Assembly: GCF_024700885.2 (NCBI RefSeq)
Contig: NZ_CP117014.1
Length of the DNA: 64,000 nt
Strand: one strand, 5' to 3'
DNA from: Escherichia coli
GTDB taxonomy: Bacteria; Pseudomonadota; Gammaproteobacteria; Enterobacterales; Enterobacteriaceae
Under the pieces are notes generated by a model. It made no database searches, was not told the DNA's origin, and saw nothing but the letters and a program-made list of their open reading frames with translations. Both the position numbers and the translations under genes were made by a program. Positions 19,576 to 47,100 of the stretch are shown here, piece by piece; positions within the stretch are counted from its first letter, which is position 1; each line of letters opens with the position of its first letter.

Positions 19576-19584
19576 TCACAACCG

Positions 19585-24897: not shown

Positions 24898-24984
24898 TGG
24901 CGGAGAGTAATGGAATCGAACCATCATCGCTTGCGCAATGGGACGGTTTTCAAGACCGCTTGAGCACCATGCTCCCTACTCTCC
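24898..24984 (-). tRNA. tRNA-Ser (anticodon TGA) with long variable arm
   Basis: GGAGAGT...GGTCTTGAAAACC...GGTTCGATTCC...CTCTCCGCCA; 87 nt. Confidence 0.7.
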
Positions 24985-25438
24985 CGTTATTGTGGCGACC
25001 GGTGCTGATCTCCGGCTTGCGGTTATTTCAGACTCTCACGGGCGTTTAATTGCCCCGCCGAACAGCTCTTTTCCGCAATAGCTGCAATGTCTTTCGCGCA
25101 TCAGCCTGCGCATTCACCACAATGTTGAGAACACTGGTTGTCACGCTGCAACGCAACATTTATTCGTAGATTGGGATATGACCCCGTTACGCCAGTGTTC
25201 TCAACGTTGTAGTGCCGGTTACGGTTCCGGCCAGACCTCTTCCTCAACGGGGTGTTCTCCATACGGACTACCGTTTATTGGTCGTTCCTGCGGTTTATGT
25301 TGTGAAGCCAGATGCTTATCTTCTGGTTGCTTCAAAGAGCTGCACTTCATCACAACGGTAAGAGCATTTATGGCTCGCATCGCGGGAAAAAGCCCACGGT
25401 AGAGAGTCGAACTCTACAAATGCTCTTACCTGTTGTGT

Positions 25439-25514
25439 TGGTGCCGGTTAACGGGATCGAACCGCTGACCATTCGCTTACAAAGCGACTGCTCTACCAAC
25501 TGAGCTAAACCGGC
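25439..25514 (-). tRNA. tRNA-Thr (anticodon TGT)
   Basis: GCCGGTTTAGCTCAGTTGGTAGAGCAGTCGCTTTGTAAGCGA...GGTTCGATCCC...AACCGGCACCA. Confidence 0.7.
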
Positions 25515-25518
25515 AATT

Positions 25519-25605
25519 TGGTGGGGAGTGATGGAGTCGAACCACCCGAGTCGCAATGACAGTAGATTTACAGTCTACCCCGCTACCCCTACGGACTAAC
25601 TCCCC
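25519..25605 (-). tRNA. tRNA-Tyr (anticodon GTA) with long variable arm
   Basis: GGGGAGTTAGTCC...AGACTGTAAATCT...GGTTCGACTCC...CTCCCCACCA. Confidence 0.7.
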
Positions 25606-25610
25606 TAAAT

Positions 25611-25687
25611 TGGCGATGGTGGGTGGATTCGAACCACCTACCGAAAGCTTAGAAGGCTGCTGTTCTATCCTACTGAGCTACACCATC
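25611..25687 (-). tRNA. tRNA-Arg (anticodon TCT, reads AGA)
   Basis: GATGGTGTAGCTCAGTAGGATAGAACAGCAGCCTTCTAAGCTTT...GGTTCGAATCC...CACCATCGCCA; anticodon loop CTTCTAA like argU; stem slightly degenerate. Confidence 0.6.
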
Positions 25688-30120: not shown

Positions 30121-33100
30121 TTAGGCCGCATCGGCGATTATTTTACGCAGTTCATCTACCGAGTAACGCGTAGATACCATCCATGCAGGACGGTCAAAGT
30201 TCACATCAGCAACCGGGTTTGCTTCAAAATTCCAGAAACGTCCGCCAATCTTCTTAATCGCGTCTTTGGCGTTCCGTATTGTCGAGGAACCTGGTTGGTC
30301 GGCAATGAGATAAACCGCGCCAACGTCCTCGCTGACGCTCCACCAGCGCCCGCGAACACGCGCCTTAGCGCGAATCGGCTTATCATTAACCACAATGATA
30401 TAGTCATCATTCGCCGCTTCATCAGCTCTGGCTTCAGCCACTGCCGCCTGCTCTTCTCTTTTGCTTTCAGCCTGCTCAAGCCTTTCCGCGATCTCTGATT
30501 CAGTGGCCCCGCCGTTTTTCAGCGATACATAGTCCTGCCACGTTGCCGATTTGAGCGTATCCGGCAACTCATTCACATAGTCGCCGTCTTTCAACTCACG
30601 GGCGCGGCGGGTAGCCATTTCTACCAGGCGATTAACAGAAACAGCATCAGCAAAATCGTCCTTACTAATGTGTTTTTCATCAAATGCATTGATGACAGCC
30701 CCCACCTTAATCCACTGTGCTGCCGGTGATTCCAGGGGGTTATCAGCCTGAACAATGGCGAGTTTCGCTCCATCTACCCCATTATTCGCCAGCTGTTCCA
30801 ATGCCGCCCATCCATCTGCATCACTGAGTGATTTATATTGCTCAAACAATGCATCGCGCCAGGCCACCAGCGCAGAACGTGTTTTTTCGATCTTCGCCTT
30901 AATTTTCGCGATCTTGACCTGATTAAACATCCGTTCAATATCATCGATATTGCTAAAGGCTTTCATCCTGCCCTGGAATAAACGGTATGCCAGCACGGTC
31001 CTCCAGAATGATTCCAGACCTTCTCCGGACGGTTTGCGGAACAAGCTAAGAATATCTTCAGAAGTGACTTTATTAAGCGAACGACCTGACAGACCACGCC
31101 CAGCCATCCAGTTTTCGAACTCATGGGCAACATCATCCATCGTTGCCTGTGCGCCCCATGCCTGCATTCCCTGGGTGTAATCATACCCATACAATGCCTG
31201 GAGGAATCCCTCGCCGTCCACGATATTCAGCGGGTTATCACTGGCTTGTATTTTTGCCACTTCACGCTTCAGCGCCTCGTCGTTGCCATCAGGATATATC
31301 CATCGCTCAGGTGCTATATCCGATGCTCGCCCGATTTTTTGGCCTATCACGCCATCATAGGCCGATGACAGCGCGATCTGACCATCATCTGTGCGATATG
31401 CCCAGTATTTAATAGCTGACCCACCGCCCCATGCATTACCAGGTTTACCAGCAATAACATTCATTACCCCATTGCGAATAGCATCATAGAACTGATCGCG
31501 AGTAAGTATTGTTGATAGCTGGTGGCACTGAACACCACGCGCAGCCGTTGCGCGCGATTCAGCTACCCCCTCTTCAAAAGTTACCGCTTCAATCACAGAG
31601 TCAAACGGCAATGTAACGATTGACCCCGGTGCTCGAGCGTAACGACTTGCTCTATCCAGCCAGGCGATACGGCAGAGGTATTGTGCTTTTTCACCGTCAA
31701 TTTTTTCCACCCGGACAATCGCTGTTGTTTCGCGATCATCAATGACTGCACGGTAATAACTACCTTTATGCAACAGGATATTCTTGTCAGTGCGCATATA
31801 TTCCTGTGGGTTCTGAATAACATCGATACTGATATCCAGCACACCAGACTTAATAGCGCGCTCCACCTCACCACGAGAGCGTTTCATTATGGTATCCGCG
31901 TCTTTTGCCCTGGTGATCGCAAACCGCAGCACCCGCGCACGTTTTCTGTAGCTACTCAACTGCTCAAGCGCGTATTTTTGCCCATTCCTGTTCGTACCCG
32001 CTTTTATCAGGTCGTCAAGATTGCGCTGGTAATACTCTATCTGTTCCATCGCGCTTTTCAGTTCTGTCTCCATCATGCCGATATCTTTTCCGGCGGCGTT
32101 TGCCGCTTTCAGGTAGATATCGAGAGCATTGTTGGCCTCGCGCTGTGCTTTCAGTTTCAGACGTTCTTCACGCTCTTGCGCCTGGCGAGCCATGATTGCG
32201 CGGCGTTCTTCCGGGTTTGCCGCCAGCATAATGGCGCGTTCATCAGCATCATCCGCATCACCATTGGCGATCTCTGACATGTCGGATGTCATCACCATCT
32301 TGATCCAGTCTTTCTTACGTTTCAGCGTATCCAGACGGAAGTCGTCGAATGTGCCTTTGCCACAATAGTAGTGAACATTGACCTTTTCTTGCGGTGAACC
32401 TACGCGCGCACCGCGCCCATTTCGTTGGTCGATACTGGCTGGTGTCCAGGGTAGTGTCAGGTGGTGGATATCGGTTGTCCCGATGTGCAGGTTAATACCT
32501 ACTTCAGCCTTCTTGTTACAGATTATGATGCGCGTGCGACCTTCGTTATAGTCGGCGGCAATACCTTCCATGCCCTCAAGGCCAGCATCATTTTTAGCGG
32601 AGAGATAATCCTCATATTGGGCAAGTTTGCTGTAGTAGGTTTCCCATGCCCCTTCTTTGTATTCACCGTTTTTGTTTGGAGTAGGTTCGGTCGGCTTATT
32701 CACCTTCTTCAGCTTGATGCCACCAGCCTGGCTAACTGTCGTCGCATTGATAATGCCAATCTCCTGCTCCGGCATTTGCAGTGCACTGGCGATAATACGG
32801 CGCAGCTTCTGGTGCTGGGCTTTTTCATCAATAAAGACGATCTGCTTACCGTTCTTCAGACCTTCACGAAGATTTTCGATCAGCGCGGCATACTTCGGCG
32901 GGATGGGGTGCGACACCTGCTGCATATCAATGCCGGCAGCCGCAATGGCCTTCAGTATTTCAGCTTCCAGTTCAATGCTGGCACGTATTTCAACATGCGT
33001 CGGATGTTCACTAAAAGCGGTCTTCACTACCTTGCTGGTACGCGTACTGACCAGCCCGCCAGCGCCGTCTTCCTCGGCCTCATCAACATCATCTGCCACT

Positions 33101-36100
33101 TTACCGCCAGCTACTTTTGGCAAGGCATCAGCAATAGCTTTTACCTGGTCTGCAAGCTCAACGGGGAACTGGAATGTAATCGCACTGGCATACAGATCCG
33201 GGTCTATAGCAACCTTATCCATGTCACGGATGATGGAGAAGATGAAATCATCCGGTTTGTCGTTAGTGATATGCCCGTTTTCATCGACTGTCAGCTCATC
33301 ATTGCGACTTAACTCCTGAGCACGCTTACGAAGCTCTTCATAAGCAGTCTCCTGCTCCCCTGTCATCGGGATCTGCAAGGTGTTCTCGATGATGTCGGGA
33401 ATTTTAACCGTCGCTCCGACATCTGCAGCAGTCTTCAGAGTGGTCCAACGATGGAAAATACCACGCAGGCCGTCAAGGTTCTGGAAGCCCACCAGCCCCT
33501 GCTTCTCTTCCACTTCCCCGGAAATTTTCTGGACCTGAACTGTGGCTGTTTTGCCAAACACACGAACGAAATCATCAGGCGTAATGATGCCCATGCGCAT
33601 CCACTCTTCCTGCGGAATGACAGTAGACAGCATGTTGAAGGCATCAATCGGACTGTTCACCAGCGGTGTTGCCGTCAGCATGACTACACCACGCCCGTTG
33701 TTGCGTTTCATCATGTACGCAGCTTTTACAGCCATGTCGCGGGCCATCTTGGATACTGCCGGGTTAGGCAAATATGCCAGTTGTCCCGCTTCACGCCCGG
33801 CATTAAAGGAGTTGCGGTAGTTATGCCCCTCGTCGGCAATCACGCTATCGAAGTTCATATCCTCAAAGTACGGGATATTCTGCTTCTTCGTTGTACCGGT
33901 ATTCGCGGCCTGATCCTTAATCTTGTTCTTCTTCTGCGCATCACGGTGTTTACCGGACGCCAGGTCAAGACGCCCCATTTCCACAGCATTAAAGACAGCT
34001 TGCTGTGAGTTCTCCTCGATGGTTTTTTCTCGTAGCGGGATAGACGCGAATTGTTCTTTTGTCATGATGACCGTTCGCCAATTTGACGACGGGATCATGT
34101 TCATGCGCTGAACGATAACGGCGCTGGCGGACTCTTTCACAACATTTCTGGTAAGAGGCTGCCCGTTACTGTCGAGGCGTGGTTCGCCATTTTCATCAAG
34201 CACCGGCGCGGTCAGAATATTTCCGCTGTCATCACGAACTTCATCCAAACCGATAAACATCATATTGGCGAAGGCATCAGCACTGTAGAAACTCTGTGCC
34301 TCGTGATACCAGTTCTGATAAACCGCCTTCGGAACAACAATACACGTGCGTTTAGTGCGACCTGTTTCGAAGTTATACGCCTCAAGCGCAAGCGCGGTCG
34401 TGGTTTTACCCAGCCCGGTACCAAATCCCATGATGCCGCGCCCATCTTCTGACAAGCTACGAACTTCTTCATTCTGATAAGTCAGAGGAATGCGCTTTCC
34501 ACTAATCCCTTCCAGGCCAAGCGGTGCGTTAGAGTGCGTGAACGGAATGAAGCCATTGAATGCGTCGTTATAGTCACGGGCTATCTGATCCGCCTGCGGG
34601 TGGGTGCGTAACCAGTCGTTAAAGCTAACTTCCAGTTGAGCAATTTTATCCAAGTACTCGTTAGCGTTCTGCCCACGCGGTTTAACACCGTTCAGGTAGT
34701 TTTCTAACTGGTTCAGGAAGCCGTCTTTATTGTTGGCCTTCTTGAACTCATTCCCGTTTTTGCCGTTTACGGTTCGTAGTTGATAGCCGGTAAATACCCC
34801 GTCCTTACCTTCGTAATCGTCCGGAGATACCAGAATGCCATCGACGACCTTCAGATCAGGTTCAGTGTACTTAAACTCGTCATAGCCCTGCTCTGCCAGG
34901 AACTCTTTTATCAAGCGGCGATCCAGCCAGCGGGCATTCAGATTAACGGTGACTTTATTTAGTGGCGTGAAAATGCGTTTCTCTTCGATTTTCGCCAACT
35001 GACGCTCAAAGTTCGCTTTCTGCTCACCTGTTGACGCATCACGCCAGCCCACCAGCAGTGCTGTTTTGGTTGCAACATCGCCGCTGGTGGCGCGGTCCAT
35101 CGGCAGCAGACAGCCATACCCATCAATAGCGATATCATCAAATTTCGCCAGGTATTCAAGGACCGCGTCGTCGTCCTCTGGCAGTTCACCAGCAAACGCC
35201 TCACGAAAGTCGCCCAGCGTTATAGGATTAAGGGCTACATCACTAAAAAGATGTGCTATCACTTGTTCAGGACGCGTAAAGTCAATACCGGCAGCACCAT
35301 CCGTTACATCAAGTCGCCCTGCCAGAAGGTCAGAAGTGGAACCATCCTGTTTCACATTGCCAGTGAACGTCATCCAGTTTTTAGCGCCAGCTTCAGCAAG
35401 CCCATTCAGCTTAATCGCGTGCGGTGGTCCATACTTCGCAACTTCTGCTGCCGCCAGGCGGGATGCATCTGCCAGTTTGTCATCAACGTTCACCCCCAGG
35501 TTACGCAAATCAAGTGCCTTGTTGATCAACTGACCTATCAGTGCACCGCGCATAACGCGCTCCCTGTCTTTTTCTCGCTGCTTGCCAGCAAAGCGAATCA
35601 TTGCTGCCACTTCATCACTGACAACCGATGGATAGTCGGACGCGATCGCCGATATCTGGTCCCATGACAAAGCCAGAATCCCGTTTGTTGACTGGAACGC
35701 GATCTGCAGATCGCCAAACGTCGAAACACCATATCGACTTACATCAAGCGCGGAGGATTTGGTTGTCGTGTCCTTAACCCATTTCAGACCATCAAACTCA
35801 TGCCAGATACCGCCTACAAGGCGTTTATCGCCCACTTTCGCGCCCTGCCATGCCTGAGTAGTTACGCCGAGCAAATCCCAATTGATGCGACTATCAAAGC
35901 GACGAGATAGCGCGGTTTTCATCGACTCATTGGATACACGACCGTCTTTTTTCACCACCAGGGTATTGCGGAAGCTGGTACGTTCCATGTCGCCGTAAAC
36001 AAATCGCTTCCCTTCGGTTGTAAACCATTTCCCTTTGAGGAAGGTATCCCAAAGGACGTTTGCCGATTTGAGCGTCGAATCATCCGTATCGGGGATCATC

Positions 36101-36957
36101 ACCAGGAAGGCTTCCGGGTGTTTACGCAATACCCATACGTCCACCACGGTATCTGTACCTGATTCACTGAACGTACCGGAAGGCATACGATGCGCGCCCA
36201 AAAATTCCGCTTTACGGCTGACTTTATCGCGCAATTTTTTGTATTTCGTACCATCAGTCATGCCATTCGGCACCACCAATACGATAAGCCCACCAGGTTT
36301 AACCTTGTCGATCGTGCGCAGCACAAAGTAATTGCCAACGTTCTTCTCGTTTGCATATGCCGGATCAAGCCCTGCAACGCCGGAACGGCCTTCGCCAAAC
36401 GGTACGTTACCAACAGCGTGGTCATACATTGCGTCTTTCGCCGCCAGCGCCTCAAACGCCCCGATATTCACATCGTCTTCCGGGTGCAAAAGCTGGTTTA
36501 TTCGACCGGAAATCGGAGACAGCTCGGCGCTGGTCATTATCATTCCCTGCCGTTTTGTCTCCTGGAAAATACCCGTGCCAGCTGATGGTTCCAGTACGTG
36601 ACCGCCATCAATACCGTAGTCAGCAAACAGCTCCCATATACCTTCAGCCATAAACTGTGGCGTGTAGTATTCGTATTGGCTGCCCTCACCATCTGTCAGG
36701 CCGCCTTCACCGGTATACCCAGCAAGAATCTGACGTTGTTCGTCAGTTAATTTCGCCCCATCGAAGCCGGGCGGAAGGGAATTAAGAAGATTTACTGCGG
36801 CATTGTTTGCTGCCCGGCGTGTTTTCTGAATACTGACGCCATCGGCTTTCCTGACGCCAAAGGTCGCAACAGCACGTAATTTATGCAACCGACTAACAAT
36901 TTCAATCAGTTCGCCTAAGCTGGAGGCTTCACTGATTGAATGAAGTAGTTTGTCCAA
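30121..36957 (-). CDS. darB: DarB-like virion anti-restriction protein (N6-adenine methyltransferase plus helicase)
   Basis: 2278 aa (P1 DarB about 2255 aa as recalled); methyltransferase motifs LEPSAGTGIF and NVPFG; helicase Walker A GFGTGLGKTT and VIADEGHNYRN. Confidence 0.75.
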   Translation of the reverse strand: MDKLLHSISEASSLGELIEIVSRLHKLRAVATFGVRKADGVSIQKTRRAANNAAVNLLNSLPPGFDGAKLTDEQRQILAGYTGEGGLTDGEGSQYEYYTPQFMAEGIWELFADYGIDGGHVLEPSAGTGIFQETKRQGMIMTSAELSPISGRINQLLHPEDDVNIGAFEALAAKDAMYDHAVGNVPFGEGRSGVAGLDPAYANEKNVGNYFVLRTIDKVKPGGLIVLVVPNGMTDGTKYKKLRDKVSRKAEFLGAHRMPSGTFSESGTDTVVDVWVLRKHPEAFLVMIPDTDDSTLKSANVLWDTFLKGKWFTTEGKRFVYGDMERTSFRNTLVVKKDGRVSNESMKTALSRRFDSRINWDLLGVTTQAWQGAKVGDKRLVGGIWHEFDGLKWVKDTTTKSSALDVSRYGVSTFGDLQIAFQSTNGILALSWDQISAIASDYPSVVSDEVAAMIRFAGKQREKDRERVMRGALIGQLINKALDLRNLGVNVDDKLADASRLAAAEVAKYGPPHAIKLNGLAEAGAKNWMTFTGNVKQDGSTSDLLAGRLDVTDGAAGIDFTRPEQVIAHLFSDVALNPITLGDFREAFAGELPEDDDAVLEYLAKFDDIAIDGYGCLLPMDRATSGDVATKTALLVGWRDASTGEQKANFERQLAKIEEKRIFTPLNKVTVNLNARWLDRRLIKEFLAEQGYDEFKYTEPDLKVVDGILVSPDDYEGKDGVFTGYQLRTVNGKNGNEFKKANNKDGFLNQLENYLNGVKPRGQNANEYLDKIAQLEVSFNDWLRTHPQADQIARDYNDAFNGFIPFTHSNAPLGLEGISGKRIPLTYQNEEVRSLSEDGRGIMGFGTGLGKTTTALALEAYNFETGRTKRTCIVVPKAVYQNWYHEAQSFYSADAFANMMFIGLDEVRDDSGNILTAPVLDENGEPRLDSNGQPLTRNVVKESASAVIVQRMNMIPSSNWRTVIMTKEQFASIPLREKTIEENSQQAVFNAVEMGRLDLASGKHRDAQKKNKIKDQAANTGTTKKQNIPYFEDMNFDSVIADEGHNYRNSFNAGREAGQLAYLPNPAVSKMARDMAVKAAYMMKRNNGRGVVMLTATPLVNSPIDAFNMLSTVIPQEEWMRMGIITPDDFVRVFGKTATVQVQKISGEVEEKQGLVGFQNLDGLRGIFHRWTTLKTAADVGATVKIPDIIENTLQIPMTGEQETAYEELRKRAQELSRNDELTVDENGHITNDKPDDFIFSIIRDMDKVAIDPDLYASAITFQFPVELADQVKAIADALPKVAGGKVADDVDEAEEDGAGGLVSTRTSKVVKTAFSEHPTHVEIRASIELEAEILKAIAAAGIDMQQVSHPIPPKYAALIENLREGLKNGKQIVFIDEKAQHQKLRRIIASALQMPEQEIGIINATTVSQAGGIKLKKVNKPTEPTPNKNGEYKEGAWETYYSKLAQYEDYLSAKNDAGLEGMEGIAADYNEGRTRIIICNKKAEVGINLHIGTTDIHHLTLPWTPASIDQRNGRGARVGSPQEKVNVHYYCGKGTFDDFRLDTLKRKKDWIKMVMTSDMSEIANGDADDADERAIMLAANPEERRAIMARQAQEREERLKLKAQREANNALDIYLKAANAAGKDIGMMETELKSAMEQIEYYQRNLDDLIKAGTNRNGQKYALEQLSSYRKRARVLRFAITRAKDADTIMKRSRGEVERAIKSGVLDISIDVIQNPQEYMRTDKNILLHKGSYYRAVIDDRETTAIVRVEKIDGEKAQYLCRIAWLDRASRYARAPGSIVTLPFDSVIEAVTFEEGVAESRATAARGVQCHQLSTILTRDQFYDAIRNGVMNVIAGKPGNAWGGGSAIKYWAYRTDDGQIALSSAYDGVIGQKIGRASDIAPERWIYPDGNDEALKREVAKIQASDNPLNIVDGEGFLQALYGYDYTQGMQAWGAQATMDDVAHEFENWMAGRGLSGRSLNKVTSEDILSLFRKPSGEGLESFWRTVLAYRLFQGRMKAFSNIDDIERMFNQVKIAKIKAKIEKTRSALVAWRDALFEQYKSLSDADGWAALEQLANNGVDGAKLAIVQADNPLESPAAQWIKVGAVINAFDEKHISKDDFADAVSVNRLVEMATRRARELKDGDYVNELPDTLKSATWQDYVSLKNGGATESEIAERLEQAESKREEQAAVAEARADEAANDDYIIVVNDKPIRAKARVRGRWWSVSEDVGAVYLIADQPGSSTIRNAKDAIKKIGGRFWNFEANPVADVNFDRPAWMVSTRYSVDELRKIIADAA

Positions 36958-37108
36958 AGGATTTCCCCCTCTAAACCGTAAAAAATTCCGCTATGCGGTA
37001 CGGTTGAGAGGGTATGGAGAATGTTATTTTCAGGGGGACGATACTACCGTCAAAATCACATACTCCCCATAGTTTGCCTACTTATTAACCCATGACCGGG
37101 AGAAAAAT

Positions 37109-37594
37109 ATGGCAAACATTGAACCTCGCTGGCTAATTGAAGCCCGTAAGCACATTGGCTTGACTGAAATAAAAGGCGCTAAACACAACCCTGAAATCGT
37201 TCAGTTCTGGCGCGACATCAAGCGCGGCGGAATTAAAGACGATGAAACGCCGTGGTGCGCAGCATTTGTCGGTGCAATGCTGGAACGTGTAGGCATTCGC
37301 TCAACAAGATTTGAGTCGGCAAAATCCTATCTGGATTGGGGCGAGAAATTAGATACACCGGCATACGGATGTATCGTTGTATTTACCCGCGTAGGCGGTG
37401 GGCACGTAGGCTTCGTTGTCGGACGCCGCGCCAATGGCGATCTGCTTGTCCTGGGTGGGAACCAGGGGGATGCGGTTAATATTCGCGCATTCCCAACATC
37501 AAGAGTGTCTGGCTATCGCTGGCCTGCTGGCGAACCACGCAATACCGCCCTGTTACCAGTCGGAGACGCAGCAACCTCAACTAATGAGGCATGA
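37109..37594 (+). CDS. CHAP/NlpC-P60-like peptidoglycan hydrolase (candidate endolysin)
   Basis: Cys in ETPWCAAFVGA and His in GGGHVGFVVG typical of the TIGR02594-type family; occupies the lyz region relative to P1. Confidence 0.5.
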   Translation: MANIEPRWLIEARKHIGLTEIKGAKHNPEIVQFWRDIKRGGIKDDETPWCAAFVGAMLERVGIRSTRFESAKSYLDWGEKLDTPAYGCIVVFTRVGGGHVGFVVGRRANGDLLVLGGNQGDAVNIRAFPTSRVSGYRWPAGEPRNTALLPVGDAATSTNEA

Positions 37595-37622
37595 AAAAAG
37601 CCCCGGCCAGGCCGGGGCATCA
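37594..37622. terminator. Rho-independent terminator after the hydrolase gene
   Basis: AAAAAAGCCCCGGCC-a-GGCCGGGGC. Confidence 0.55.
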
Positions 37623-37823
37623 CGCTTCAAGTCACGATCCAATCATTACCGACTATATCAGCCGTCGATAAATCAACTTCCCGGATCTGGAGTCCATTAA
37701 TACAAAACCATCCGGTAGTAGAGTAATTATCAGGCCAGGCCCATACACCAACACTCCATGCTTTACGGCGGCACACTTCAGCCTGTCCTTCCCTGATTTT
37801 TTTTACCGCCTGCATGATGTCCA

Positions 37824-38531
37824 TCACTCACCTCCCCAACCGATCACCTGGAATTGCCCCATTTTGGGGTGATACCAGCGTTTTCCTCGGTGTTCAGCCT
37901 CCGACATCATCCGGTTAAAAGCATTCATGAAGGGAGATAAGGCCACGATGGAACGACGCGACAATACCCCCTCTGGAGTCAAAAACTCATGTGTATCGGT
38001 GGGAATCCGGTAAGCGTTGACAAGGTTTCGGCATTTGGCTTCAGTCAGGCCGCATTTCGCCGCCAGCTGGCGGTAGCCAATGTAGCCTTCCGGAATATTG
38101 CCTTTCTTTATTTGCTCGACGGTTTCAGCGACCTGGCTAACCTTTGACTCAACAGCATGAATCAGCTTTTGCTGCTGAACTGCATTCGCAGCCATTGCAG
38201 CGATCATCTCTATTTCGGTCAACGGCTGGCGTACTTGTTCTTCCAGTTCGCGCCAGCGGTCCACCAGCCGGGCGGTGAATTCGGGAGAGAGCTGCGCGAC
38301 GACAATGATGCTGTCTCGTTTGCCTTGCTCGCCTTCGAAGACGTAAGCCTCAACGCCACGACGCAATCCTAAGTTATTGATTTTTTCGAAAACAGCCATT
38401 GGCGGTTTTCGGATAATGCTTCGAGCAACCATACGCTCAATACTACGTTTAACGTCAGAGTGTTGGCTTCCCACCAGCTCCGCAATCTCAATGCTGGTCA
38501 TTGATAGTTTTTCGAGAATGCAGATACCCAT
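37824..38531 (-). CDS. Rha-family phage regulatory protein
   Basis: N-terminal MTSIEIAELVGSQHSDVKRSIERM resembles the Rha domain. Confidence 0.45.
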   Translation of the reverse strand: MGICILEKLSMTSIEIAELVGSQHSDVKRSIERMVARSIIRKPPMAVFEKINNLGLRRGVEAYVFEGEQGKRDSIIVVAQLSPEFTARLVDRWRELEEQVRQPLTEIEMIAAMAANAVQQQKLIHAVESKVSQVAETVEQIKKGNIPEGYIGYRQLAAKCGLTEAKCRNLVNAYRIPTDTHEFLTPEGVLSRRSIVALSPFMNAFNRMMSEAEHRGKRWYHPKMGQFQVIGWGGE

Positions 38532-38755
38532 CAGTGTGCCTCCGCAATTCCGGGATTGGTAATATTGCGATACCAGGGATTAGTGTTTGGTTGTGGGGAA
38601 GTAGAGAAACGACCAGTAAGAACACCATGCTGATCAGGGATCAGAGAACGGGCTTCTTTTTCGGTTGCGGCAATTGCGAAGTGATCGCAGCGTTTTTGCA
38701 GGGAGTGGAAACGCCAGATGAATTCTGGACGTGAGCAAGGATTGGCATTAACCAT
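38531..38755 (-). CDS. Hypothetical 74-aa protein
   Basis: ORF coupled to Rha-like gene. Confidence 0.3.
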   Translation of the reverse strand: MVNANPCSRPEFIWRFHSLQKRCDHFAIAATEKEARSLIPDQHGVLTGRFSTSPQPNTNPWYRNITNPGIAEAH

Positions 38756-39168
38756 AGTTACGGCCTCACTAACAGGTTTAACAACCTGCCACCCGCTGTC
38801 AAACAGGTGGCAGGACGTGACAGGGTTGACAGACTGGCGTTAGTGAAACCAGCAGGCCGAAGCCTCCCCATCACGCCCCACCATAATTCGGGCGTAACGC
38901 GGTTTACGGACACAAAAATACCGCAATATCGGAAATCTGCGGTTGTCCGCACTAACATTCAGGCTGTCAAACCCGGTCGCAGAATTTGCTACGACGGCAT
39001 GAATATAAGCCTGAAAACATGGAAGATCAACTAAAAATTTCAGCAATGGATGACTTCAGTCGATGATGCAGATCATACATTCCGTTTTAGAAACAGCAAA
39101 TTAATTTTCTAACATAAATAATCGGCCGAGCATTTTCCGATCATTGGGATGTTTTGTAGACACACAGG

Positions 39169-40131
39169 TCATCCCCTAAATCCCGCAGGGATTGACCAAT
39201 CCTCACGGTCAAATTCAGACCGATAGCCACGCTGTTTCATCAGGTCAAAGGCTTCACCAATGGTTGCACACCCCTGGGAGCCAGAATAATCCATTGAGAA
39301 ATCTAGGGCACTGGATTGTTTAGGCTTATTCACTGCGGTAGCGGCACTACGTATCCATGCAAATTTTTTTGCCAGCTTTTCAGCGGTACGATACAGAGCC
39401 TGCCGTTTTGCGTGCCCCTCGTCTGAACGACGCTTTGCAGCTCTCGCTTTTGCCGCCGCCAGGCAGTGGTTGGTATGTTCTTCCCTGATTACTGGTTTTT
39501 TATCCAGTACCCCGTTATCCGTTTGAGAACTATCTGCAGGTGAAGCCTTTGGCTGAACCGCGCATGATCTTTCTCTTCTTTTGGCTATAGAGTGACTCTT
39601 ATTTTCTATTGGCTGTTCATTTTGAACATGGGGGGACTTGTTCAATTTGAACAGGGGGTTCCCAGTTTCAAAAAAATAACGAACCTTTGAAATCAACTGC
39701 TTAACCAGTTTTGTGGCGTTGGCAAATTTGATGCCCTGCTTACCCCCTATCTCCATTGCTACATGAATGAAGTGGAGAAATTGTGTCGTAAACCGATATA
39801 CGTTACACACCTGGGCATTGTTATTCGCTACCTGATGTTGCTTAACAAGCATTCCGCACTTCGTCGCTTCAGCAAATGCCCGGCGCACAGTAGAAATACT
39901 GCGTCCTGTAATCTCGGACATATCAGCATATGAGCGACGGATCATGTATTCATCGGTAGACCCTGCCAGGTTGGCGAACTCGGCAATAATGGCGCTATGT
40001 GAAGGGGAAAGAAGACCGCTATGACGAGCAAAAAAACTCAACTGATGACCTTTGATTTTTTTGTGGTATTCAGTGTTGTTTTTATACTCAGAAGTGTTGA
40101 AAGTTACTGAAACTGAATTTAAAATACTCAC
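39169..40131 (-). CDS. Putative replication initiator (RepL-like) with internal palindromic repeats
   Basis: HTH-like MSEITGRSISTVRRAFAEATKCGML; two tandem palindromes inside the coding sequence; operator-like motif upstream. Confidence 0.4.
   Translation of the reverse strand: MSILNSVSVTFNTSEYKNNTEYHKKIKGHQLSFFARHSGLLSPSHSAIIAEFANLAGSTDEYMIRRSYADMSEITGRSISTVRRAFAEATKCGMLVKQHQVANNNAQVCNVYRFTTQFLHFIHVAMEIGGKQGIKFANATKLVKQLISKVRYFFETGNPLFKLNKSPHVQNEQPIENKSHSIAKRRERSCAVQPKASPADSSQTDNGVLDKKPVIREEHTNHCLAAAKARAAKRRSDEGHAKRQALYRTAEKLAKKFAWIRSAATAVNKPKQSSALDFSMDYSGSQGCATIGEAFDLMKQRGYRSEFDREDWSIPAGFRG
39614..39657. repeat. Two tandem palindromic sites TGTTCA-N3-TGAACA inside the RepL-like gene (candidate internal origin)
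   Basis: TGTTCATTTTGAACATGGGGGG and TGTTCAATTTGAACAGGGGG about 24 bp apart. Confidence 0.4.
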
Positions 40132-40304
40132 CAGATAGTTCCGTGAAAAAATCTATCTACCGTATAAATCTATGGCAGTGGATTTATACACCCAAAAAGC
40201 CGCTTCTCAGCGGCTTTTGCTTTTTTGGCAGTCGCTACCGGAGCAGTGACCGCGATCCTACTCGATCCCATCCACCAGGATCAACAGTGTATATAAATAC
40301 ACTA

Positions 40305-40312
40305 TGTTAGAA
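40305..40312 (-). promoter_or_regulatory. Operator-like motif upstream of the RepL-like operon
   Basis: TGTTAGAA about 175 bp upstream of the 40131 start. Confidence 0.35.
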
Positions 40313-40331
40313 ATTTAACTTAACAAGGCGA

Positions 40332-41330
40332 TTACCCCCTTCTGGAAACGAAGAGTAACGGGGTAGTGTTTTTGTTCTCCTTCGGTGATAACTCTGGTTC
40401 TTTCTTGCCTGATACCGGTAAGCCATAAGTAGCATTTGCCCCAAGAGATTCAAGCATCGCAGCCACTATGCGGGCATCATCTTCAGACTGCATACGGCAG
40501 AGCGCCCGGCGCTGTTCTGCGCTGATAAAAACAGGCATTTCCTGGATAGCTTCACGCAAAATCCGGCGGCATTGCTTTGCATTTTCCCCCTGGCTTTCCA
40601 TCATCGCTGTTTGAGCGCGCAGCTTATCTCGAAGCTGTATGTTTTCCACTTCAAGGAGCATCAATTCTGATTCCAGGGCTTCACGATGTGCAGATTCGAG
40701 CATGGCTTGCTGATTTTTCATTGCTGAAAAGTGGTGAACCAGATCCGTAGCAGCGTTATCGGTAAAACCTTGTTCGATAAGTGCTGCATGAATAGCCGCA
40801 TCGCGCTCTTCTGCTGATTCAAGCATCAGGCTTTTCTTGTCGAGGCTGATATAGTTAGGCACAGTTACGTAATCAAAGCCGTGGAAAGACTTTACCAGGG
40901 ATACCGATGAATCTGGACCAGATGTAGCCCACGACCAACCACCAGCACCAGAATTAATCATGCCCTGAACAATACGCCCGGTGTCTGTATTCAGTATTTC
41001 CTGCGTATGAGTAACAATGCCGTTGTCGTCAATCGAAATGTCGATAGTCCTGTTTGACGGCACGTTCTCCAATACAACAGGCTTCCCATCTACCATCACA
41101 ACAGAGACTTCCGGCAAGTTCAGGCTTTTCGTTTTGTTATAGTGCATCGCCCGGCGACCATGACCGTAATAACCATACATCTCACCCAGCGCGATACGCT
41201 CTTTTGTTTCTGGCGAGTTGAATGTGTCTCGTACCGACTGAATGACGTAATTTCGGTTGTTCTGCGGTGTGTGTTTGCGGATTTTCTCTACCAGGGAGAA
41301 GCGATCCGTAACAGTATTCAGTGATTGCAT
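40332..41330 (-). CDS. Putative prohead protease/scaffold (Pro-like)
   Basis: 332 aa with C-terminal coiled coil; directly downstream of the portal candidate. Confidence 0.4.
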   Translation of the reverse strand: MQSLNTVTDRFSLVEKIRKHTPQNNRNYVIQSVRDTFNSPETKERIALGEMYGYYGHGRRAMHYNKTKSLNLPEVSVVMVDGKPVVLENVPSNRTIDISIDDNGIVTHTQEILNTDTGRIVQGMINSGAGGWSWATSGPDSSVSLVKSFHGFDYVTVPNYISLDKKSLMLESAEERDAAIHAALIEQGFTDNAATDLVHHFSAMKNQQAMLESAHREALESELMLLEVENIQLRDKLRAQTAMMESQGENAKQCRRILREAIQEMPVFISAEQRRALCRMQSEDDARIVAAMLESLGANATYGLPVSGKKEPELSPKENKNTTPLLFVSRRG

Positions 41331-41343
41331 TATTTCCCTCCGG

Positions 41344-43026
41344 TTAATTGCTCATCACAAATTTTGCAAAGTTTATTAACTGTTCTGGCGTCCAGTTTTC
41401 CGGATCGTCACCGGACGACAACGGCGCGGATTCGTACATACCATGCTCGTTGTTTTGCTCTGATTCATTCGCCTTAAACTCTTTGATCATGGTGTTGAGA
41501 GTGTCATCGTCGATGTGCAACTGCTCAGTGAACAGATAACGCATAAACGCGTCGCTACCAGCCAGTTTCGGGTTGTTCTGGATCTGGTCCATAATTTGGG
41601 AGATGACAGCAACAAAGTTGGCGCGTGCATCCAGTTCTCGGTTTTCCTCTTCCTGGATAGCTGTGTTCATTGAGTTGAATTGCACGTCATAAGGGCGGTT
41701 TGTTTCGGTGTAAACCTTGCCGTATTTATAAGCGAGGTGAATGTCCAGAAGCCGATAAATAGTTCGCTGGGCGGCCTGTCTGATCCAGTTCGCACGCAAT
41801 GCAGCCTGGATAGCAGTTTGCTGCCAGCCGCCTTCTCCAAGCCCTCCGCTCATCTGATCAGCCCAGCCAAGCATTGTTGCGTCAATGCCGAGGCTTGCAG
41901 CAAGCTGCCGGAGGTGAAACATAACGTCTTCGATACCACTGATATCTGCGGGTATGGATTGCGTATCAATGGTGATGCCGTTCTTCCCGTCTCCCATAAC
42001 AGGTATCAGATGGTTAAGCACAGTCGGAATAGCGTTGGCATTAATCGACCTTTGCGCCACCAGGTCACTATGACGCTTCAATGCCTGGCTGACGCCACGC
42101 GTATAGTTCGCCGCATTAACCGGGTCCAGTGTGTTCGTCGTAAGAGCAATCAGGCGGTCAATTTTGGCTGCATTATTTCGCGTTGATTTCAGCGCGGCGA
42201 GCGAAGCACATAAATTAAGGTAAGGTTCATAGCTGTATTCCAGGAATGAAGTTCCGTAATTCTGCGTCTCCATTAACGGCTTATCAGCCTGATCACTTAA
42301 CAGTGAGTACCCTTTTGTGCCGTAGCTAACCGGAATAACTTTATGCTGTGGCGTCCAATAGGGATTTTTCATGGAAACCAGATTCCACGGTTCGGTTATT
42401 ACTCTGCGCAAACTATGCGTATCCAGAATGTAATCACCACTGAAACCTACCAGCTGGCTACCACGATAAAACTCCTGGACGAAGTGTGGCAGAGTGTAAT
42501 AACTGGACTCAATGCCTGTTATCCCCCTGCCCTGTTCAGCATAAGGTCGGACATAAGACACCCCAAAGATCGCCATAATCATGGCCCATGAAGGAAGTCC
42601 GTCATTAATCACCGTCCCCAAATCAGCGGTTAACTCTTCACATCTACTTACTGCCTCGGCATCGGAACCATCCTTTGGCGAAAGGATGAATGCTTGTCCG
42701 GTTTTTTTTGAAGGCGCAAGCGCATGTGCAATGTGAATATTTAAAGCCGTCGAGATAGTCGGGCTTTTAGCCATCGTTTCCAGGATGTTGTACTTTTGCA
42801 GGCGGTCGCCGGGCAGTTCTGCCGAAATTGATACTGTATCTGCCGCGCTTGTCATGCCATCGCTATTGCCACCCAGTATCCCCGGACGTAAAGCGGACAG
42901 ACCAGAACGCGCAACGACACTATGACCGCTCGTAAAAACGACCGGATCGGCAGGCGTGACATCGCCACTGTTGAAGGCTTTCTTCAATGCCGACAGAAAG
43001 CCTTTGTTTTTGTCTTTCGTTGCCAT
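41344..43026 (-). CDS. Putative portal protein (Prt-like)
   Basis: 560 aa; size and position next to protease gene and the dar cluster. Confidence 0.4.
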   Translation of the reverse strand: MATKDKNKGFLSALKKAFNSGDVTPADPVVFTSGHSVVARSGLSALRPGILGGNSDGMTSAADTVSISAELPGDRLQKYNILETMAKSPTISTALNIHIAHALAPSKKTGQAFILSPKDGSDAEAVSRCEELTADLGTVINDGLPSWAMIMAIFGVSYVRPYAEQGRGITGIESSYYTLPHFVQEFYRGSQLVGFSGDYILDTHSLRRVITEPWNLVSMKNPYWTPQHKVIPVSYGTKGYSLLSDQADKPLMETQNYGTSFLEYSYEPYLNLCASLAALKSTRNNAAKIDRLIALTTNTLDPVNAANYTRGVSQALKRHSDLVAQRSINANAIPTVLNHLIPVMGDGKNGITIDTQSIPADISGIEDVMFHLRQLAASLGIDATMLGWADQMSGGLGEGGWQQTAIQAALRANWIRQAAQRTIYRLLDIHLAYKYGKVYTETNRPYDVQFNSMNTAIQEEENRELDARANFVAVISQIMDQIQNNPKLAGSDAFMRYLFTEQLHIDDDTLNTMIKEFKANESEQNNEHGMYESAPLSSGDDPENWTPEQLINFAKFVMSN

Positions 43027-43209
43027 GAGTCACCGCGAAATGTTTTCAGTTTGCGGCAGCATAATCAGTATGTGATTTTTGATGATGGATCTTTTCAACT
43101 AGAAATATTGGCTGGCCCCTCTCGTAACAAAGTGAAGAATAAAACTTGAATATGCACATTGTGCGCATTAAGATTGAAAAAGTTGACCACTTTGCTGCGG
43201 AGAAATCCC

Positions 43210-43512
43210 ATGAAAAGCTCTTTAATTAATTCCAAATTACACCAACTTGCTATCAAAAATCGAGTTCCTGCATGGTCGGTTTACATGCATATCAGCCGCG
43301 CATGTCTGAGCAATGAAAACATTTACAATCTGCAAATTCTAAGCCGGGAAGGCAGGACTTTGTTTAGCGTTGCAGAGGATTCCTATAAGGCCTGGGATAT
43401 GCTGGATGACGCGTTAAGCCAATACGCGCAAACAGAAGAATGCCAAAAAGAATGGGCCAGGTACTGTGATGAAGGGATGCCATGCTGCGGTCTATTCGGC
43501 GCAGCTCTGTGA
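43210..43512 (+). CDS. Hypothetical small protein
   Basis: ORF; ATG at 43210 with GGAG upstream. Confidence 0.3.
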   Translation: MKSSLINSKLHQLAIKNRVPAWSVYMHISRACLSNENIYNLQILSREGRTLFSVAEDSYKAWDMLDDALSQYAQTEECQKEWARYCDEGMPCCGLFGAAL

Positions 43513-43524
43513 ATCGATTCAACG

Positions 43525-43788
43525 ATGATATACTTCGTTGCGAATCACAGCATTGGCAAAGGGCATATTGTGAAACAACTCCCACCAAACACCCCGGAAA
43601 CTATAATTGAAATCCGCCAGCGAATGGGGCTAACGCAAACGGAGTTAGCCCACAAAATGGGGTATCAACTCCGGGCTTGGCAATTCAAAGAAGATAGAAA
43701 TAAACCGAGACGCCTTATGGCTGGTGAATTTGAGTACCTGTTATTGCTTGCTGGAGAGCATCCTGAATTTATTCTTACACCACGCTAA
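43525..43788 (+). CDS. XRE-type HTH regulator (Hxr-like)
   Basis: IRQRMGLTQTELAHKMG helix-turn-helix; same position relative to ddrB as hxr in P1. Confidence 0.5.
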   Translation: MIYFVANHSIGKGHIVKQLPPNTPETIIEIRQRMGLTQTELAHKMGYQLRAWQFKEDRNKPRRLMAGEFEYLLLLAGEHPEFILTPR

Positions 43789-43792
43789 AAAA

Positions 43793-43808
43793 ACCCGCCT
43801 GACGGCGG
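43793..43808. terminator. Bidirectional terminator between convergent hxr-like and 43823 gene
   Basis: AAAAAAACCCGCC-tgac-GGCGGGATT. Confidence 0.55.
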
Positions 43809-43822
43809 GATTATCAATCATA

Positions 43823-44116
43823 TCAATTCACATCAATGTCTTGATATGATTCGCCAGTATCGTCTTCGTCGTCAGGATCTCCTTCCACCTCTGGCCACTC
43901 AACCTCCCAGCCAACAGTTTCCAGGCTCCGCAGAACAAACACCCCATCGGCATGAATGGTATTCACGATCCCCATTGCGGAATTTGAGTTGATAAAGCGT
44001 AAATCTTGCGCAATATTTTCTTCCGAAATATCGCCTTCAAATATACGCAATGTGCCGTCATCAGAGCATTCAACAATCCCTCTAATCCCAGCGGGACTCA
44101 CAATGCTATACTTCAT
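43823..44116 (-). CDS. Small acidic protein (IddB-like position)
   Basis: 97 aa, acidic C-terminus; overlaps the stop region of the upstream 1013-aa gene. Confidence 0.3.
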   Translation of the reverse strand: MKYSIVSPAGIRGIVECSDDGTLRIFEGDISEENIAQDLRFINSNSAMGIVNTIHADGVFVLRSLETVGWEVEWPEVEGDPDDEDDTGESYQDIDVN

Positions 44117-47100
44117 TTTGCAACTCCTTCATACATCCCAAGAAAAATTCCAGCACGCCGTCATTGTTTAATACAGAGTTAGTCGCCTGCTCCGGATCGG
44201 CATACATCTGCAAGGCCATAGAAAAAATCTCAGTCGCCCTGCAATTGCTTAATGCAGGTGGCTTTGATATAAATCTGCCGCTGACAGAACTTACCGTATT
44301 TTCCATATAAATTTTAGACATATATCCATGACTTAGGTCGGTTCGCACCAAATACTCAGCACTGCCACGGCTACCAATATTATGATAAGAAACTTTACCG
44401 TTAGTTTTTGATTTAATGAAGGCTTTGGCCCTCTCCAATAGATGGGGATTTGAATGTTCTATATGGTGACCTATTTCATGCCATAATACACGCTCGTGAT
44501 CACTATTAGCATCAATTGTTATATTCCCATTTCGACTTGCAAAAGCACGAACATTGTTCTTGTGGTTAATATTTTTTAATGTAGATAAAGTCCCTCCTGA
44601 AATAATATAGGCTTTTTCAATCGTCTCGCGAATACTGTATGCTTTACGGGAGAAAGTTTCATTATCGTGACCACTTAACTGCTCTGCTTCATCAGAAATA
44701 GCAATCCCACGACTCCATTCCTTAGACTGGTCATGTGACACATTTGACGATTCAAGAATCATGTCAAATGCGGCTCTGACTTTTTTATGTACTACATTTT
44801 CAAGCGCATTAGGATAGGCTTTTTGTCCACGTGTTAATGAAGCTATTTCATATAGTTCTGCTTGCAAGTCTTCCGGTATGTCCAGATTAAAAACAAGCAT
44901 TTTTTTCAGATCATATCCAATCCCATGATCATTCTGGTGCAAAACCTCAGCAAGGTAGTCAGTGAGTTTTTCCTTATTTGACCTAACTTTATTGATTTGT
45001 TCTATAGTAAAGTCAACACGCTCCTTGATTCCGTAATATGAGGAATGCTCTGCTAATTCCACTATCTCCTTAAGCCTGACAAGTGTCTCAATATACGCAT
45101 CAGCGATCTCCTCTGCCGTTAGTTCAGAGCTAACTCCGACACTGGCTGTTATTTTCCTACCAGCCGCCATAATATCGTCGATATTATGCAAGCTCTTTTT
45201 GAATAACTTCAAAGTATTTTGGATTATGCACACCATCTCTTCTGCGCTTCCAGCTTTATTCATTTCCTTTCTAAATCTTAAAGCTGTTTTCTCTGCAATA
45301 GACGCTGGAGATTTTAAATAGTTACCTAACCAAACAAGACAACCATTGCGCAATTCATCAATACTAAAGTCATCAGGAATATGTTTTGCTGCATTATGTA
45401 AAACACGTATAAATTGTTCAGCGGGCACGCCTTCTTCTGATATGTTGCAAAACGTTTCAATATCACAATCAATATTTCTTTCATCTGCGAGCGAAGGAGC
45501 TTCATCTCCTTTTTCAATCGCGTCACGCAGTGCGTTAGCATAAAAATTGCTGCGTTGATAAGACAATAACATCGTTGTTAACACAGCGTCGCTGTATCCA
45601 TAACGTTTAGCCCACTCCTTAATCTCATTAACGGTGACATTGCGAATATAAAAACCAAGTTCCAAAAATACATTGCGCTTTATTTTTTTTGCGGACTCCT
45701 TAATTTTTTCTGACACCTTCACGATTCGGATCAAGTCCTCCACGCTGGTCGCATCAGCAATTAGCTTTGAAATGTATGGTTCGACATCTCCTGAAACCGA
45801 TTCAAACATGGCGAAATTAAGCCCTTTACCTTCGCCATACTCAGCCTCAATTTCATCAGAAACGGCAGATAAAATGCTACGCAGATCGACATCTCCGCCG
45901 CCGAACATATCGCCTAACGCTTGTTGCTGGTGAATAAGTTCATCGTTAATTTTTTGCGCCAGTTTCTTGAAAGCTGCCCCCATTCGCTTAGCGCTTCGGT
46001 TGTTGGCAACAATAAACAGAGCAAGCGCTTCTGCTTCCGGAGTGCTATCTCCAAACAATCCACGCTGTGCGATCACCTCTTCTACTGCCTGACCGTTATC
46101 TTTTGCTTCACGAACAAGGTTAATTGCTTCCTGTAGCGCGGCAATAGCCTGTTTATCCAGACCATTCAATTGCTCTATACCGTCTACCAGTCCGGTTACC
46201 GTGTCATGGTGAACATCACCTGAAAGCGACTGCATTTGCGCAAAATCGCTGGCTGCCGTATTTAATGCGGTAAGAATGTTACGCATTTCCGGATCTGGCT
46301 CTTCCGCCACCAGCCGAACAAGCCTTTCATCCTTGTACGCTTTGGCAAAAATTGCATTCTGGATGCGGTCGATAAGTTGTTTCGTTGGACGCCCATCGGC
46401 AGTAAGCAAACCTGCCGTCGCCGTATCACCTATTTCGCGCAAAAACGCACGAATAAACGCATCATTGGACCGCGCCAGTAGATTTCCATCATCTGAAGGA
46501 TTAAATAGCGCCATGACGCTCTCAGTGAGAAATTGCGCATCCGCATACGCTTTTTCACTTGCAGCCATCTCTTGCAGATCGCTGATGTTTGAATCGCGGG
46601 CAAATTGTGCGCGGTCTACATCTGTGAGTCTTTCTCGCACCAATACGGGCATAGACATTTGTGAAATGTCGTCAGGATTCAGACCAAACTCTTTTGCATG
46701 ATCGATCAGGTACTGGCGATATTCATCCGCCTGCCCTTGCTCATAGGCACGCCAGATACCCATGCTCCTTCCGTTGCCGGATTCAACAACGTTGTCCGGA
46801 CCAACTATCGGCGCTCCGTGGCTGCTCATGCCGGAATCCGTTAATTGTGCCGGGCGTAAATTGGAGGCAATACGGTTAACCTGGAGTTTGCTTGATAGCC
46901 GTGTACGGTCACGTGGCTGGAGTTCTTCCGGGAAGGCCGGATTAATCGTACCGTCAAGGTTGTTCGAAATGATCAGACTGCTGGCATCAACGACCTTAAA
47001 AGCCGTCTTTACCTCTGCCCCTTTACTGGTGACTACGTAACTACTGCGCCCCTGGCGTGTTTCTCGCCTCTCTAATGAAGAAACCAGCGCAATAACACTG

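Follow-up and report, generated by a model that had tools for sequence, protein, structure and literature searches.

In the phage-plasmids P1 and P7, the antisense RNA C4 is processed from the operon transcript, pairs with the target sites a2 and b2, and blocks the translation of icd and thereby the expression of ant. In the P1 genome (NC_005856), this immunity region, immI, lies together with the lytic replicon (c4-icd-ant1/2-kilA-repL) at 48.1-51.6 kb, between sim and rlf. A related set of genes is found in Escherichia phage D6 (MF356679), in which orf16-orf20 (19271-22293) lie between darB and pro and are annotated as a putative peptidoglycan hydrolase (orf16), a hypothetical protein (orf17), a Roi-like anti-repressor (orf18), icd (orf19) and repL (orf20). 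A 2019 paper on the D6-like plasmid pYU39_89 describes a region related to ImmI that contains c4, icd and a gene for an antirepressor, with a predicted peptidoglycan hydrolase alongside, and a second c4/icd region at another place (PMC6799933). Here we describe the corresponding block, positions 37109-40131, of a 64,000-nucleotide stretch of Escherichia coli DNA (contig NZ_CP117014.1), the whole of which is referred to below as the window. The block very probably comprises the immunity functions (C4 antisense RNA, icd and antirepressor), the lytic replication function (repL) and a probable endolysin of a D6-type plasmid prophage of E. coli.

The block is flanked by darB (30121-36957; 2,278 amino acids, aa) on one side and by pro and prt (40332-43026) on the other, all on the minus strand, and its genes have the same order and orientation as in D6. 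The sequence between 36500 and 40500 is 96.2% identical, over its whole length, to D6 (18662-22662); to the E. coli plasmid NZ_CP035876.1 it is 99.8% identical, and at least 80% of it is present in 107 plasmid records. In a set of 5,426 complete E. coli genomes, 93 carry at least 80% of the sequence between 37000 and 40200, and most of these copies are on plasmids about 90-97 kb in size. A first-pass annotation, made from the letters of the window alone, had named four open reading frames (ORFs) in the block: a CHAP-type hydrolase, a Rha-family regulator, an ORF of 74 aa and a RepL-like gene. All four are present at the coordinates assigned to them and, because the same order is found in phage D6, in the 107 plasmid records and in 20 of 21 D6-like loci from IMG/VR, they are genes and not chance ORFs. 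The D6 match and its annotation, the plasmid and genome counts and the published description of pYU39_89 together establish that the layout is real, common and previously described. Members of the D6 group have it as their standard arrangement, and it is not peculiar to the present element; a few small details of the block may be unreported so far.

The 74-aa ORF (38531-38755, minus strand), which the first-pass annotation had listed without recognizing its identity, is icd, the gene for a cell-division inhibitor that serves as the leader cistron of ant. Its product matches NF033153 with 38.4 bits and is 59% identical to P1 Icd. The gene begins with the ATG at 38755, directly downstream of C4, which occupies 38803-38888 of the minus strand and matches the full Rfam model RF01695 with 68.8 bits (gathering score 45). 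Upstream of C4 is a leader with decoy sites (38950-39008, minus strand), of which 38956-39008 matches RF03163 with 55.2 bits (gathering score 46.7). Neither RNA element had been seen by the first-pass annotation, nor had a 65-aa gene at 37627-37824 that is described below. From the P1 annotation and the alignment to P1, the leader contains a1 (TTGACAG, 38970-38964) and b1 (GTTAGTG, 38956-38950), and alignment to P1 and D6 places the two loops of C4, which are of the P1 type, at 38832-38826 (a', CTGTCAA) and 38845-38839 (b', CACTAAC). The target sites a2 (TTGACAG, 38802-38796) and b2 (GTTAGTG, 38773-38767), all of these elements being on the minus strand, are identical to the sites annotated in NC_005856, and b2 abuts the Shine-Dalgarno sequence GAGG of icd. 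The four sites are exact reverse complements of the loops. A sigma-70-like promoter, TTGATC-17-TATATT (39002-39030, minus strand), was detected by a promoter scan and aligns with the P1 promoter P1c4 (P51b). Because of their overlap with C4 and the leader, two ORFs (38758-38958 and 38840-39046) were not accepted as genes. A sub-threshold Rfam match (44.5 bits; threshold 50) to IsrK, a small RNA of Salmonella prophages, was observed at 38914-38995 of the minus strand, where it overlaps the a1/b1 leader and the ensuing hairpin and T-run.

The gene that follows icd encodes the 235-aa regulator (37824-38531, minus strand). Its product belongs to the Rha family, as the first-pass annotation had proposed (Phage_pRha, 30.6 bits; cut-off 29.9), and it matches phrog_63, "anti-repressor Ant", with an E value of 1.2e-46. 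The icd stop codon overlaps the start of this gene (CACTGATGG), a configuration pointing to translational coupling, and the gene thus holds the antirepressor position of immI. The stop codon of the 235-aa gene is in turn overlapped (TGATG) by the ATG of the third cistron, the 65-aa gene that corresponds to D6 orf17 (37627-37824, minus strand), which is preceded by GGAGG at a distance of 6 nucleotides (nt). We conclude that the 74-aa ORF and the Rha-family gene are parts of a P1-type immI cassette that is made up of the leader, C4, a2/b2, icd, a coupled candidate antirepressor of the Rha/Roi type and a third, 65-aa cistron. In the D6 record, positions 74022-75178, which lie just before window position 1, hold a second icd-antirepressor pair that is situated beside pmgF and simB in D6-type elements.

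Window positions 38644-39015 are 93% identical over 372 bp to P1 48210-48581, and this c4-icd region is the sole part of a 4-kb query that was matched in P1 by megablast. The C4 loops, the a1/b1 and a2/b2 sites and the start of icd are, accordingly, identical or nearly so in the two elements, and P1 likewise has ant coupled to icd, repL linked to immI, and a double promoter with an upstream operator, for which the present element has a candidate. The differences are that P1 Ant is not homologous to the 235-aa protein, that kilA is present in P1 and has no homolog here, that the sequence of the candidate operator is not that of P1, and that repL lies downstream of c4 in P1 and upstream of it here. 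Furthermore, the 65-aa cistron is an addition of the present cassette, and the P1 block lies between sim and rlf, whereas the block described here lies between darB and pro.

Whether the C4 loops and their targets change together was assessed in 25 loci: the window, D6 (L001), P1 (L003), P7 and 21 IMG/VR loci that encode the 235-aa antirepressor (the loci include L007-L026, L065 and L087). In all 25, a' is the exact reverse complement of both a1 and a2, and b' that of both b1 and b2. Two types of the a sequence and four of the b sequence were found, in six combinations. The combination of a' CTGTCAA with b' CACTAAC is the most frequent (11 loci: P1, the window and nine others), followed by CTGCTAA with CATTCGT (five loci), CTGCTAA with CACTAAC (four loci) and CTGTCAA with CGTAAGT (three: D6 and two other loci); CTGCTAA with CACAATC occurs in P7, and CTGTCAA with CACAATC in a single locus. 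Such consistent covariation argues strongly, on comparative grounds, for selection acting on the antisense pairing in elements of the P1, P7 and D6 groups. The loop sequences indicate that the present element has the C4 specificity of P1, unlike D6, in which the b' loop and both b targets differ (CGTAAGT/ACTTACG, as compared with CACTAAC/GTTAGTG here) and the record of which has no c4 annotation. A precedent for C4 loops and cognate targets that determine immunity specificity is the immI of heteroimmune P7 (a' CTGCTAA, b' CACAATC); as compared with P7, the present element carries the P1 loop pair, and relatives of the D6 group show four further combinations.

If the cassette operates as in P1, then the constitutive promoter, together with a candidate C1-controlled promoter described below, would transcribe the leader with a1 and b1, C4, a2 and b2, icd, the antirepressor gene and the 65-aa gene. 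C4 would be cut from this transcript, and a2 and b2, which lie at the icd ribosome-binding site, would be bound by its two loops; the pairing would stop translation of icd and, through coupling, that of the downstream Rha/Roi-type gene. When C4 becomes limiting, the antirepressor would be made, and it would be expected to inactivate the C1 repressor.

In P1, c1, lpa and ref are also under the control of C1. The P1 annotation places a C1 operator before c4 and another before the kilA-repL operon. The C1 operator consensus of P1, ATTGCTCTAATAAATTT, has no match in the window when up to three mismatches are allowed. An inverted repeat that links the regions upstream of c4 and repL led to a 16-mer, TATGTTAGAAAWTTAA (TRTGTTAGAAAWYTAA), which, with three mismatches or fewer, has 12 matches in the window as compared with 1.57 expected, a number that no shuffled sequence reached. 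The matches include those at 276, 931, 3783, 17098, 18508, 22941, 26907, 28156, 29199, 39101 and 40303, and several are accompanied by a partial inverted second copy. Sites are found just upstream of c1 (18508), lpa (22941) and ref (931), in the c4 promoter region (39101-39116) and upstream of repL (40303-40318). The site before c4, TATGTTAGAAAATTAA (39116-39101, minus strand), is followed by TTGCTG-16-TATGAT (39099-39072), a layout like that of Oc4 and P2c4 in P1. The site before repL, TATGTTAGAAATTTAA (40303-40318, plus strand), is a second exact match, lies between the pro stop codon and repL, and has the same orientation to its gene as the site at lpa. Judging from enrichment and position, we regard the 16-mer as a candidate for the operator to which C1 of D6-type elements would bind.

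The RepL-like gene (39169-40131, minus strand; 320 aa) was correctly recognized by the first-pass annotation. Its product is 28% identical to P1 RepL (E value 6e-29) in an alignment of about 290 aa that pairs residues 28-320 with residues 20-281 of the P1 protein, and it matches phrog_2418 with an E value of 1e-130. Since the alignment is nearly full-length and includes the C-terminal sequence IPAGFRG, common to both proteins, the gene is the counterpart of P1's own repL: a true, if distant, homolog of the lytic replication initiator, and not a replacement of ssb. A lytic role is the natural reading because D6-type elements have a separate plasmid replicon, which in D6 is of the Rep_3 type (orf42) and in pYU39_89 is repB with iterons (PMC6799933). 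With a candidate C1 operator in front of it, repL would be expected to fire a lytic origin once C1 is removed. Inside the gene are two tandem palindromes, TGTTCAWTTTGAACA, at 39614-39628 and 39639-39653, 25 bp apart. Conservation in the region of the palindromes (39614-39653) does not exceed that of the remainder of the gene, and no similar repeats were found in P1 repL; a role as an origin or a binding site is speculative. In the operon of P1, kilA is located upstream of repL; no KilA homolog was found here. Between pro and repL, a terminator scan identified a hairpin (40195-40218) that has a T-run on either strand, and the best sigma-70 promoter candidates for repL have 7-8 matches of 12, none of them convincing. 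On the plus strand, a promoter-like sequence, TTGAAA-17-TAAAAT, is present in the 5' end of repL and points away from the gene toward the hairpin and T-run (40097-40228). The 97-nt RNA predicted from it, of which this hairpin would form the 3' end, folds with a z score of -5.15. Such a transcript, which would be antisense to the leader of repL, recalls PaskilA of P1.

The 65-aa product of the third cistron belongs to phrog_7385, a PHROG without assigned function, and both D6 and the RefSeq plasmids annotate it as hypothetical. Its relatives are very few, as a homolog search yielded three clusters, and a PDB sequence search with orf17 gave no relevant match. Three weak lines of evidence agree with one another. 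The Pfam profile Tad2-like/DUF2829 (PF11195) matches below threshold (15.1 bits, threshold 25; E value 0.034), the match spanning positions 1-72 of the 73 of the profile. An AlphaFold2 model, built from a shallow alignment of 10 sequences and having a predicted local distance difference test score (pLDDT) of 78.7, retrieved Tad2 at ranks 1-18 of a PDB fold search (E values 0.1-0.4). In BFVD, the top matches of the same model are Tad2-like/DUF2829 proteins with probabilities of 0.99-1.0 and E values of 0.01-0.1. Tad2 is the anti-Thoeris sponge of phage SPO1 (bioRxiv 10.1101/2023.05.01.538930); it has 89 aa as compared with the 65 aa here, and each of these scores taken singly is below significance. 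From the concordance of the profile and the model matches, the protein is likely a member of DUF2829, and we consider it a candidate anti-Thoeris protein. One could envision, tentatively, that immI of the D6 group is a three-cistron cassette (icd, a Rha-type antirepressor and a Tad2-like protein) gated by a C4 RNA whose loops have been re-assorted among elements of the P1, P7 and D6 groups.

At the other end of the block, the 161-aa hydrolase gene (37109-37594, plus strand) is convergent to the immI operon, from which it is separated by a GC-rich hairpin of eight G-C pairs with a T-run on the minus strand (37600-37618), identified by a terminator scan. The family assignment in the first-pass annotation holds, since the protein matches CHAP with 31.4 bits (cut-off 26) and TIGR02594, which comprises CHAP-like peptidoglycan peptidases of the NlpC/P60 type, with 143.3 bits (cut-off 70.55). 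The catalytic Cys and His are conserved: among 42 homologs with 45-86% identity, H99 is invariant, and 90% or more of the proteins retain C50, N118 and Q119. An AlphaFold2 model (pLDDT 94.1) shows the papain-like NlpC/P60 fold and has NlpC/P60 or CHAP peptidoglycan hydrolases as its top 30 fold matches in the PDB, with a probability of 1.0 and template modelling (TM) scores of about 0.5; the NlpC/P60 D,L-endopeptidases (Thermus thermophilus 4xcm, LytE, MepS and RipA/B) come first, followed by CHAP endolysin domains and Tse1. A sequence search of the PDB with the protein gave no relevant match. Since the sequence shows no hydrophobic segment at the N terminus, the enzyme would need a holin; the holin genes lydA and lydB are located about 13 kb away. 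Neither the window nor the whole of D6 contains a homolog of P1 Lyz, Ssb or KilA detectable by tblastn (nothing below an E value of 0.3; the best Lyz matches in both have E values of at least 0.34), and in the D6 annotation the tail protein Sit is the only other product described as wall-degrading, no further free-standing peptidoglycan hydrolase being named.

The region upstream of the hydrolase gene suggests that it is expressed late. The late-promoter pattern taken from the P1 annotation, AAGTGAYTT-N4-TANNNT, has no match upstream of any late operon in the window. Comparison of the upstream regions revealed another box, AAATMACAWACT, which differs from that of P1 and is followed after 3-5 nt by TANNNT; it has eight matches in the window as compared with 1.47 expected, at 37018, 37053, 43067, 47186, 50951 and 56231 and also at 44403 and 15997. 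The copy upstream of the hydrolase gene, AAATCACATACT (37053-37064, plus strand), is followed after 5 nt by the -10-like sequence TAGTTT (37070-37075), and a copy with one mismatch, AAATAACATTCT (37029-37018, minus strand), followed by TACCCT (37014-37009), faces darB. The same box precedes prt (43067), lydA (50951), the tail-fibre gene R (56231) and ddrB (47186). All 16 close relatives have the hydrolase box at -56 relative to the ATG, and four relatives in which the surrounding sequence is otherwise unrelated have it at similar spacing. We infer from these positions that the box is the late promoter of D6-type elements, which would depend on Lpa.

The family and fold, the late-promoter-like box, the lack of a Lyz homolog and of any other free-standing hydrolase named in D6 together suggest that the 161-aa protein is probably the endolysin, a non-orthologous replacement of Lyz. 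The gene would be transcribed late, on the plus strand and convergent to immI, from the conserved box, and it would encode a soluble peptidase of the NlpC/P60 type that takes the place of the P1 lysozyme and is released by the LydA/LydB holin system. P1 Lyz (gene 17), a T4-lysozyme-like endolysin of the signal-arrest-release (SAR) type, is likewise the product of a late gene that has its own late promoter and is convergent to pro, the lateness of the hydrolase gene being read from its box. The two proteins have no sequence similarity; the one is a Cys-His peptidase without a visible N-terminal SAR segment and the other a glycosidase, and the companions of P1 lyz, lydD and lydE, are absent here. 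In an Aeromonas P2-like phage, a TIGR02594 protein that follows the holin has been called an endopeptidase (PMC10709362); the hydrolase gene described here, unlike that gene, is not beside a holin gene. In type VI secretion system (T6SS) effectors and in tail proteins, the TIGR02594 domain is fused to other modules, whereas here it is free-standing.

The first-pass annotation had explained the block as a local exchange, in which lyz and ssb of P1, thought to lie between darB and the prt and pro genes, had given way in situ to genes for an unrelated hydrolase, a regulator and a RepL-like protein. We consider this explanation unlikely. It draws support from the absence of Lyz and Ssb homologs in the window and in D6, from the position of a different hydrolase gene that converges on pro, as does P1 lyz, and from the cargo in the gap between the hydrolase gene and darB, which varies among relatives and indicates that this neighbourhood exchanges DNA. 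The P1 map contradicts its premise. The order in P1 is ulx, darB, prt, pro, lydE, lydD, lyz and ssb, with prt, pro and ssb on the strand opposite to that of the other genes; the gap between darB and prt is 75 bp, and lyz and ssb lie beyond pro. Thus, a lyz site can be recognized in a loose sense only, as a hydrolase gene convergent to pro at its 3' end, and not in the interval between darB and prt. In the window, prt and pro are on the strand of darB, inverted relative to P1, with the 3' end of pro facing the block, so that more than one rearrangement must separate the two layouts. The regulator, the 74-aa ORF and RepL are homologs or analogs of the immI-repL region at 48-51 kb of P1, moved and re-ordered, rather than replacements of ssb, and in D6 the genes that neighbour that region in P1 (tub, pmgC, bplB and pmgG) are adjacent to one another. 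What stands of the proposed replacement is that the probable endolysin is of another kind and that ssb is absent; an exchange of replication functions is not supported, given that the 320-aa gene and repL of P1 are homologs. A simple exchange of modules at one site is, therefore, not in keeping with the relocated and re-ordered immI and repL, with the inverted prt and pro, or with a layout that is standard for the D6 group and kept in 20 of the 21 D6-like loci.

Alternative functions can also be envisioned for the individual proteins. The 235-aa protein might act, like Roi and Rha of lambdoid phages, as a DNA-binding regulator of lytic genes and not as a protein antagonist of C1, a view that we regard as the less likely one. 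It is favoured by the Phage_pRha domain, by the lack of similarity to P1 Ant1 (BLASTP E value 0.96) and by the closest matches beyond the D6 group, which are Roi-like proteins from lambdoid prophages, as in HK97 and HK629 (70-78% protein identity, with 79% DNA identity over 263 bp to HK629 roi), in which, unlike here, no c4 and icd precede the gene. On the other hand, the gene occupies the exact ant slot, is coupled to icd and would be under C4 control, and its product falls in the PHROG of anti-repressor Ant. Moreover, the most variable stretch of the whole block among D6-like relatives is 38350-38470 (minus strand), in which 30-39% of sites differ as compared with a few percent in the flanking genes and which encodes the N-terminal part of the protein (approximately residues 20-60), a pattern that co-evolution with a partner would explain. 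Second in variability are the promoter and operator regions and the positions of the C4 loops and targets. As for the hydrolase, TIGR02594 is also found as a C-terminal module of tail proteins (phrog_1259) and in T6SS effectors (PMC13055248), and with lydA and lydB 13 kb away one might suppose that the 161-aa peptidase is an accessory wall-modifying or antibacterial protein and that the true endolysin is a gene not yet recognized. This seems to us quite improbable, as the protein is free-standing with no virion or secretion module visible in its sequence, its gene shares its late box, kept in 20 of 20 relatives, with the operons for structural proteins and the holin, no Lyz homolog was found in the window or D6, and no further free-standing hydrolase is named in the D6 annotation. 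Least probable of all is that the RepL-like gene serves plasmid maintenance or is inactive. No family model names the gene and no convincing promoter was identified for it, but it is homologous to P1 RepL over its full length, is 92-99% conserved among relatives, has a candidate C1 operator upstream, and coexists in D6 and pYU39_89 with the separate replicons mentioned above.

Several observations weigh against our interpretation of the block as a functional immunity, replication and lysis unit. The second icd-antirepressor pair of D6-type elements lies outside the window, and the cassette that governs immunity may be either of the two. The candidate antirepressor has no similarity to P1 Ant1/2, and its closest relatives, as judged by sequence, are the lambdoid Roi proteins, encoded in loci that lack c4. 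The terminator-like hairpin at 40195-40218 separates the candidate operator from repL, and the search for a sigma-70 promoter of that gene gave no convincing candidate. The holin genes are not neighbours of the hydrolase gene. Finally, neither the C1 operator consensus of P1 nor its late-promoter consensus occurs here, and the two motifs proposed in their place are new and were deduced from enrichment and position.

Variation was also seen around the block. The gap between the hydrolase gene and darB contains additional DNA in some D6-like relatives, with three kinds of cargo: a 391-aa ORF that by eye resembles TnpB/IS605 OrfB (L017, 4538-5713), a 170-aa lipoprotein-like ORF (L009, 4577-5089, and also L015 and L016) and a 123-aa ORF (L020, 4658-5029). 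On the far side of pro and prt, positions 43078-45802 of the window have no match to D6; this segment has a G+C content of just 37-41% and contains three small ORFs, of which one matches HTH_3 weakly, as well as the 3' part of the 1,013-aa ddrB (ddrB-ParB domain). Four tRNA genes identified with Rfam are clustered at 24396-25687 (minus strand), and the D6 record annotates three in the corresponding region.

The main gain from this analysis is a corrected annotation of the block, as an immI cassette with repL and a probable endolysin rather than as a replacement of lyz and ssb, and the block shows the usual mosaicism of P1-like phage-plasmids. The six loop combinations predict which elements of the P1, P7 and D6 types would cross-react at the antisense level. 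If the three-cistron cassette that we tentatively propose for D6-group immI exists, then antisense immunity would be common to the present element and P1, while the C1 operator and the antirepressor differ, and a candidate anti-Thoeris sponge would be directly controlled by an immunity RNA.

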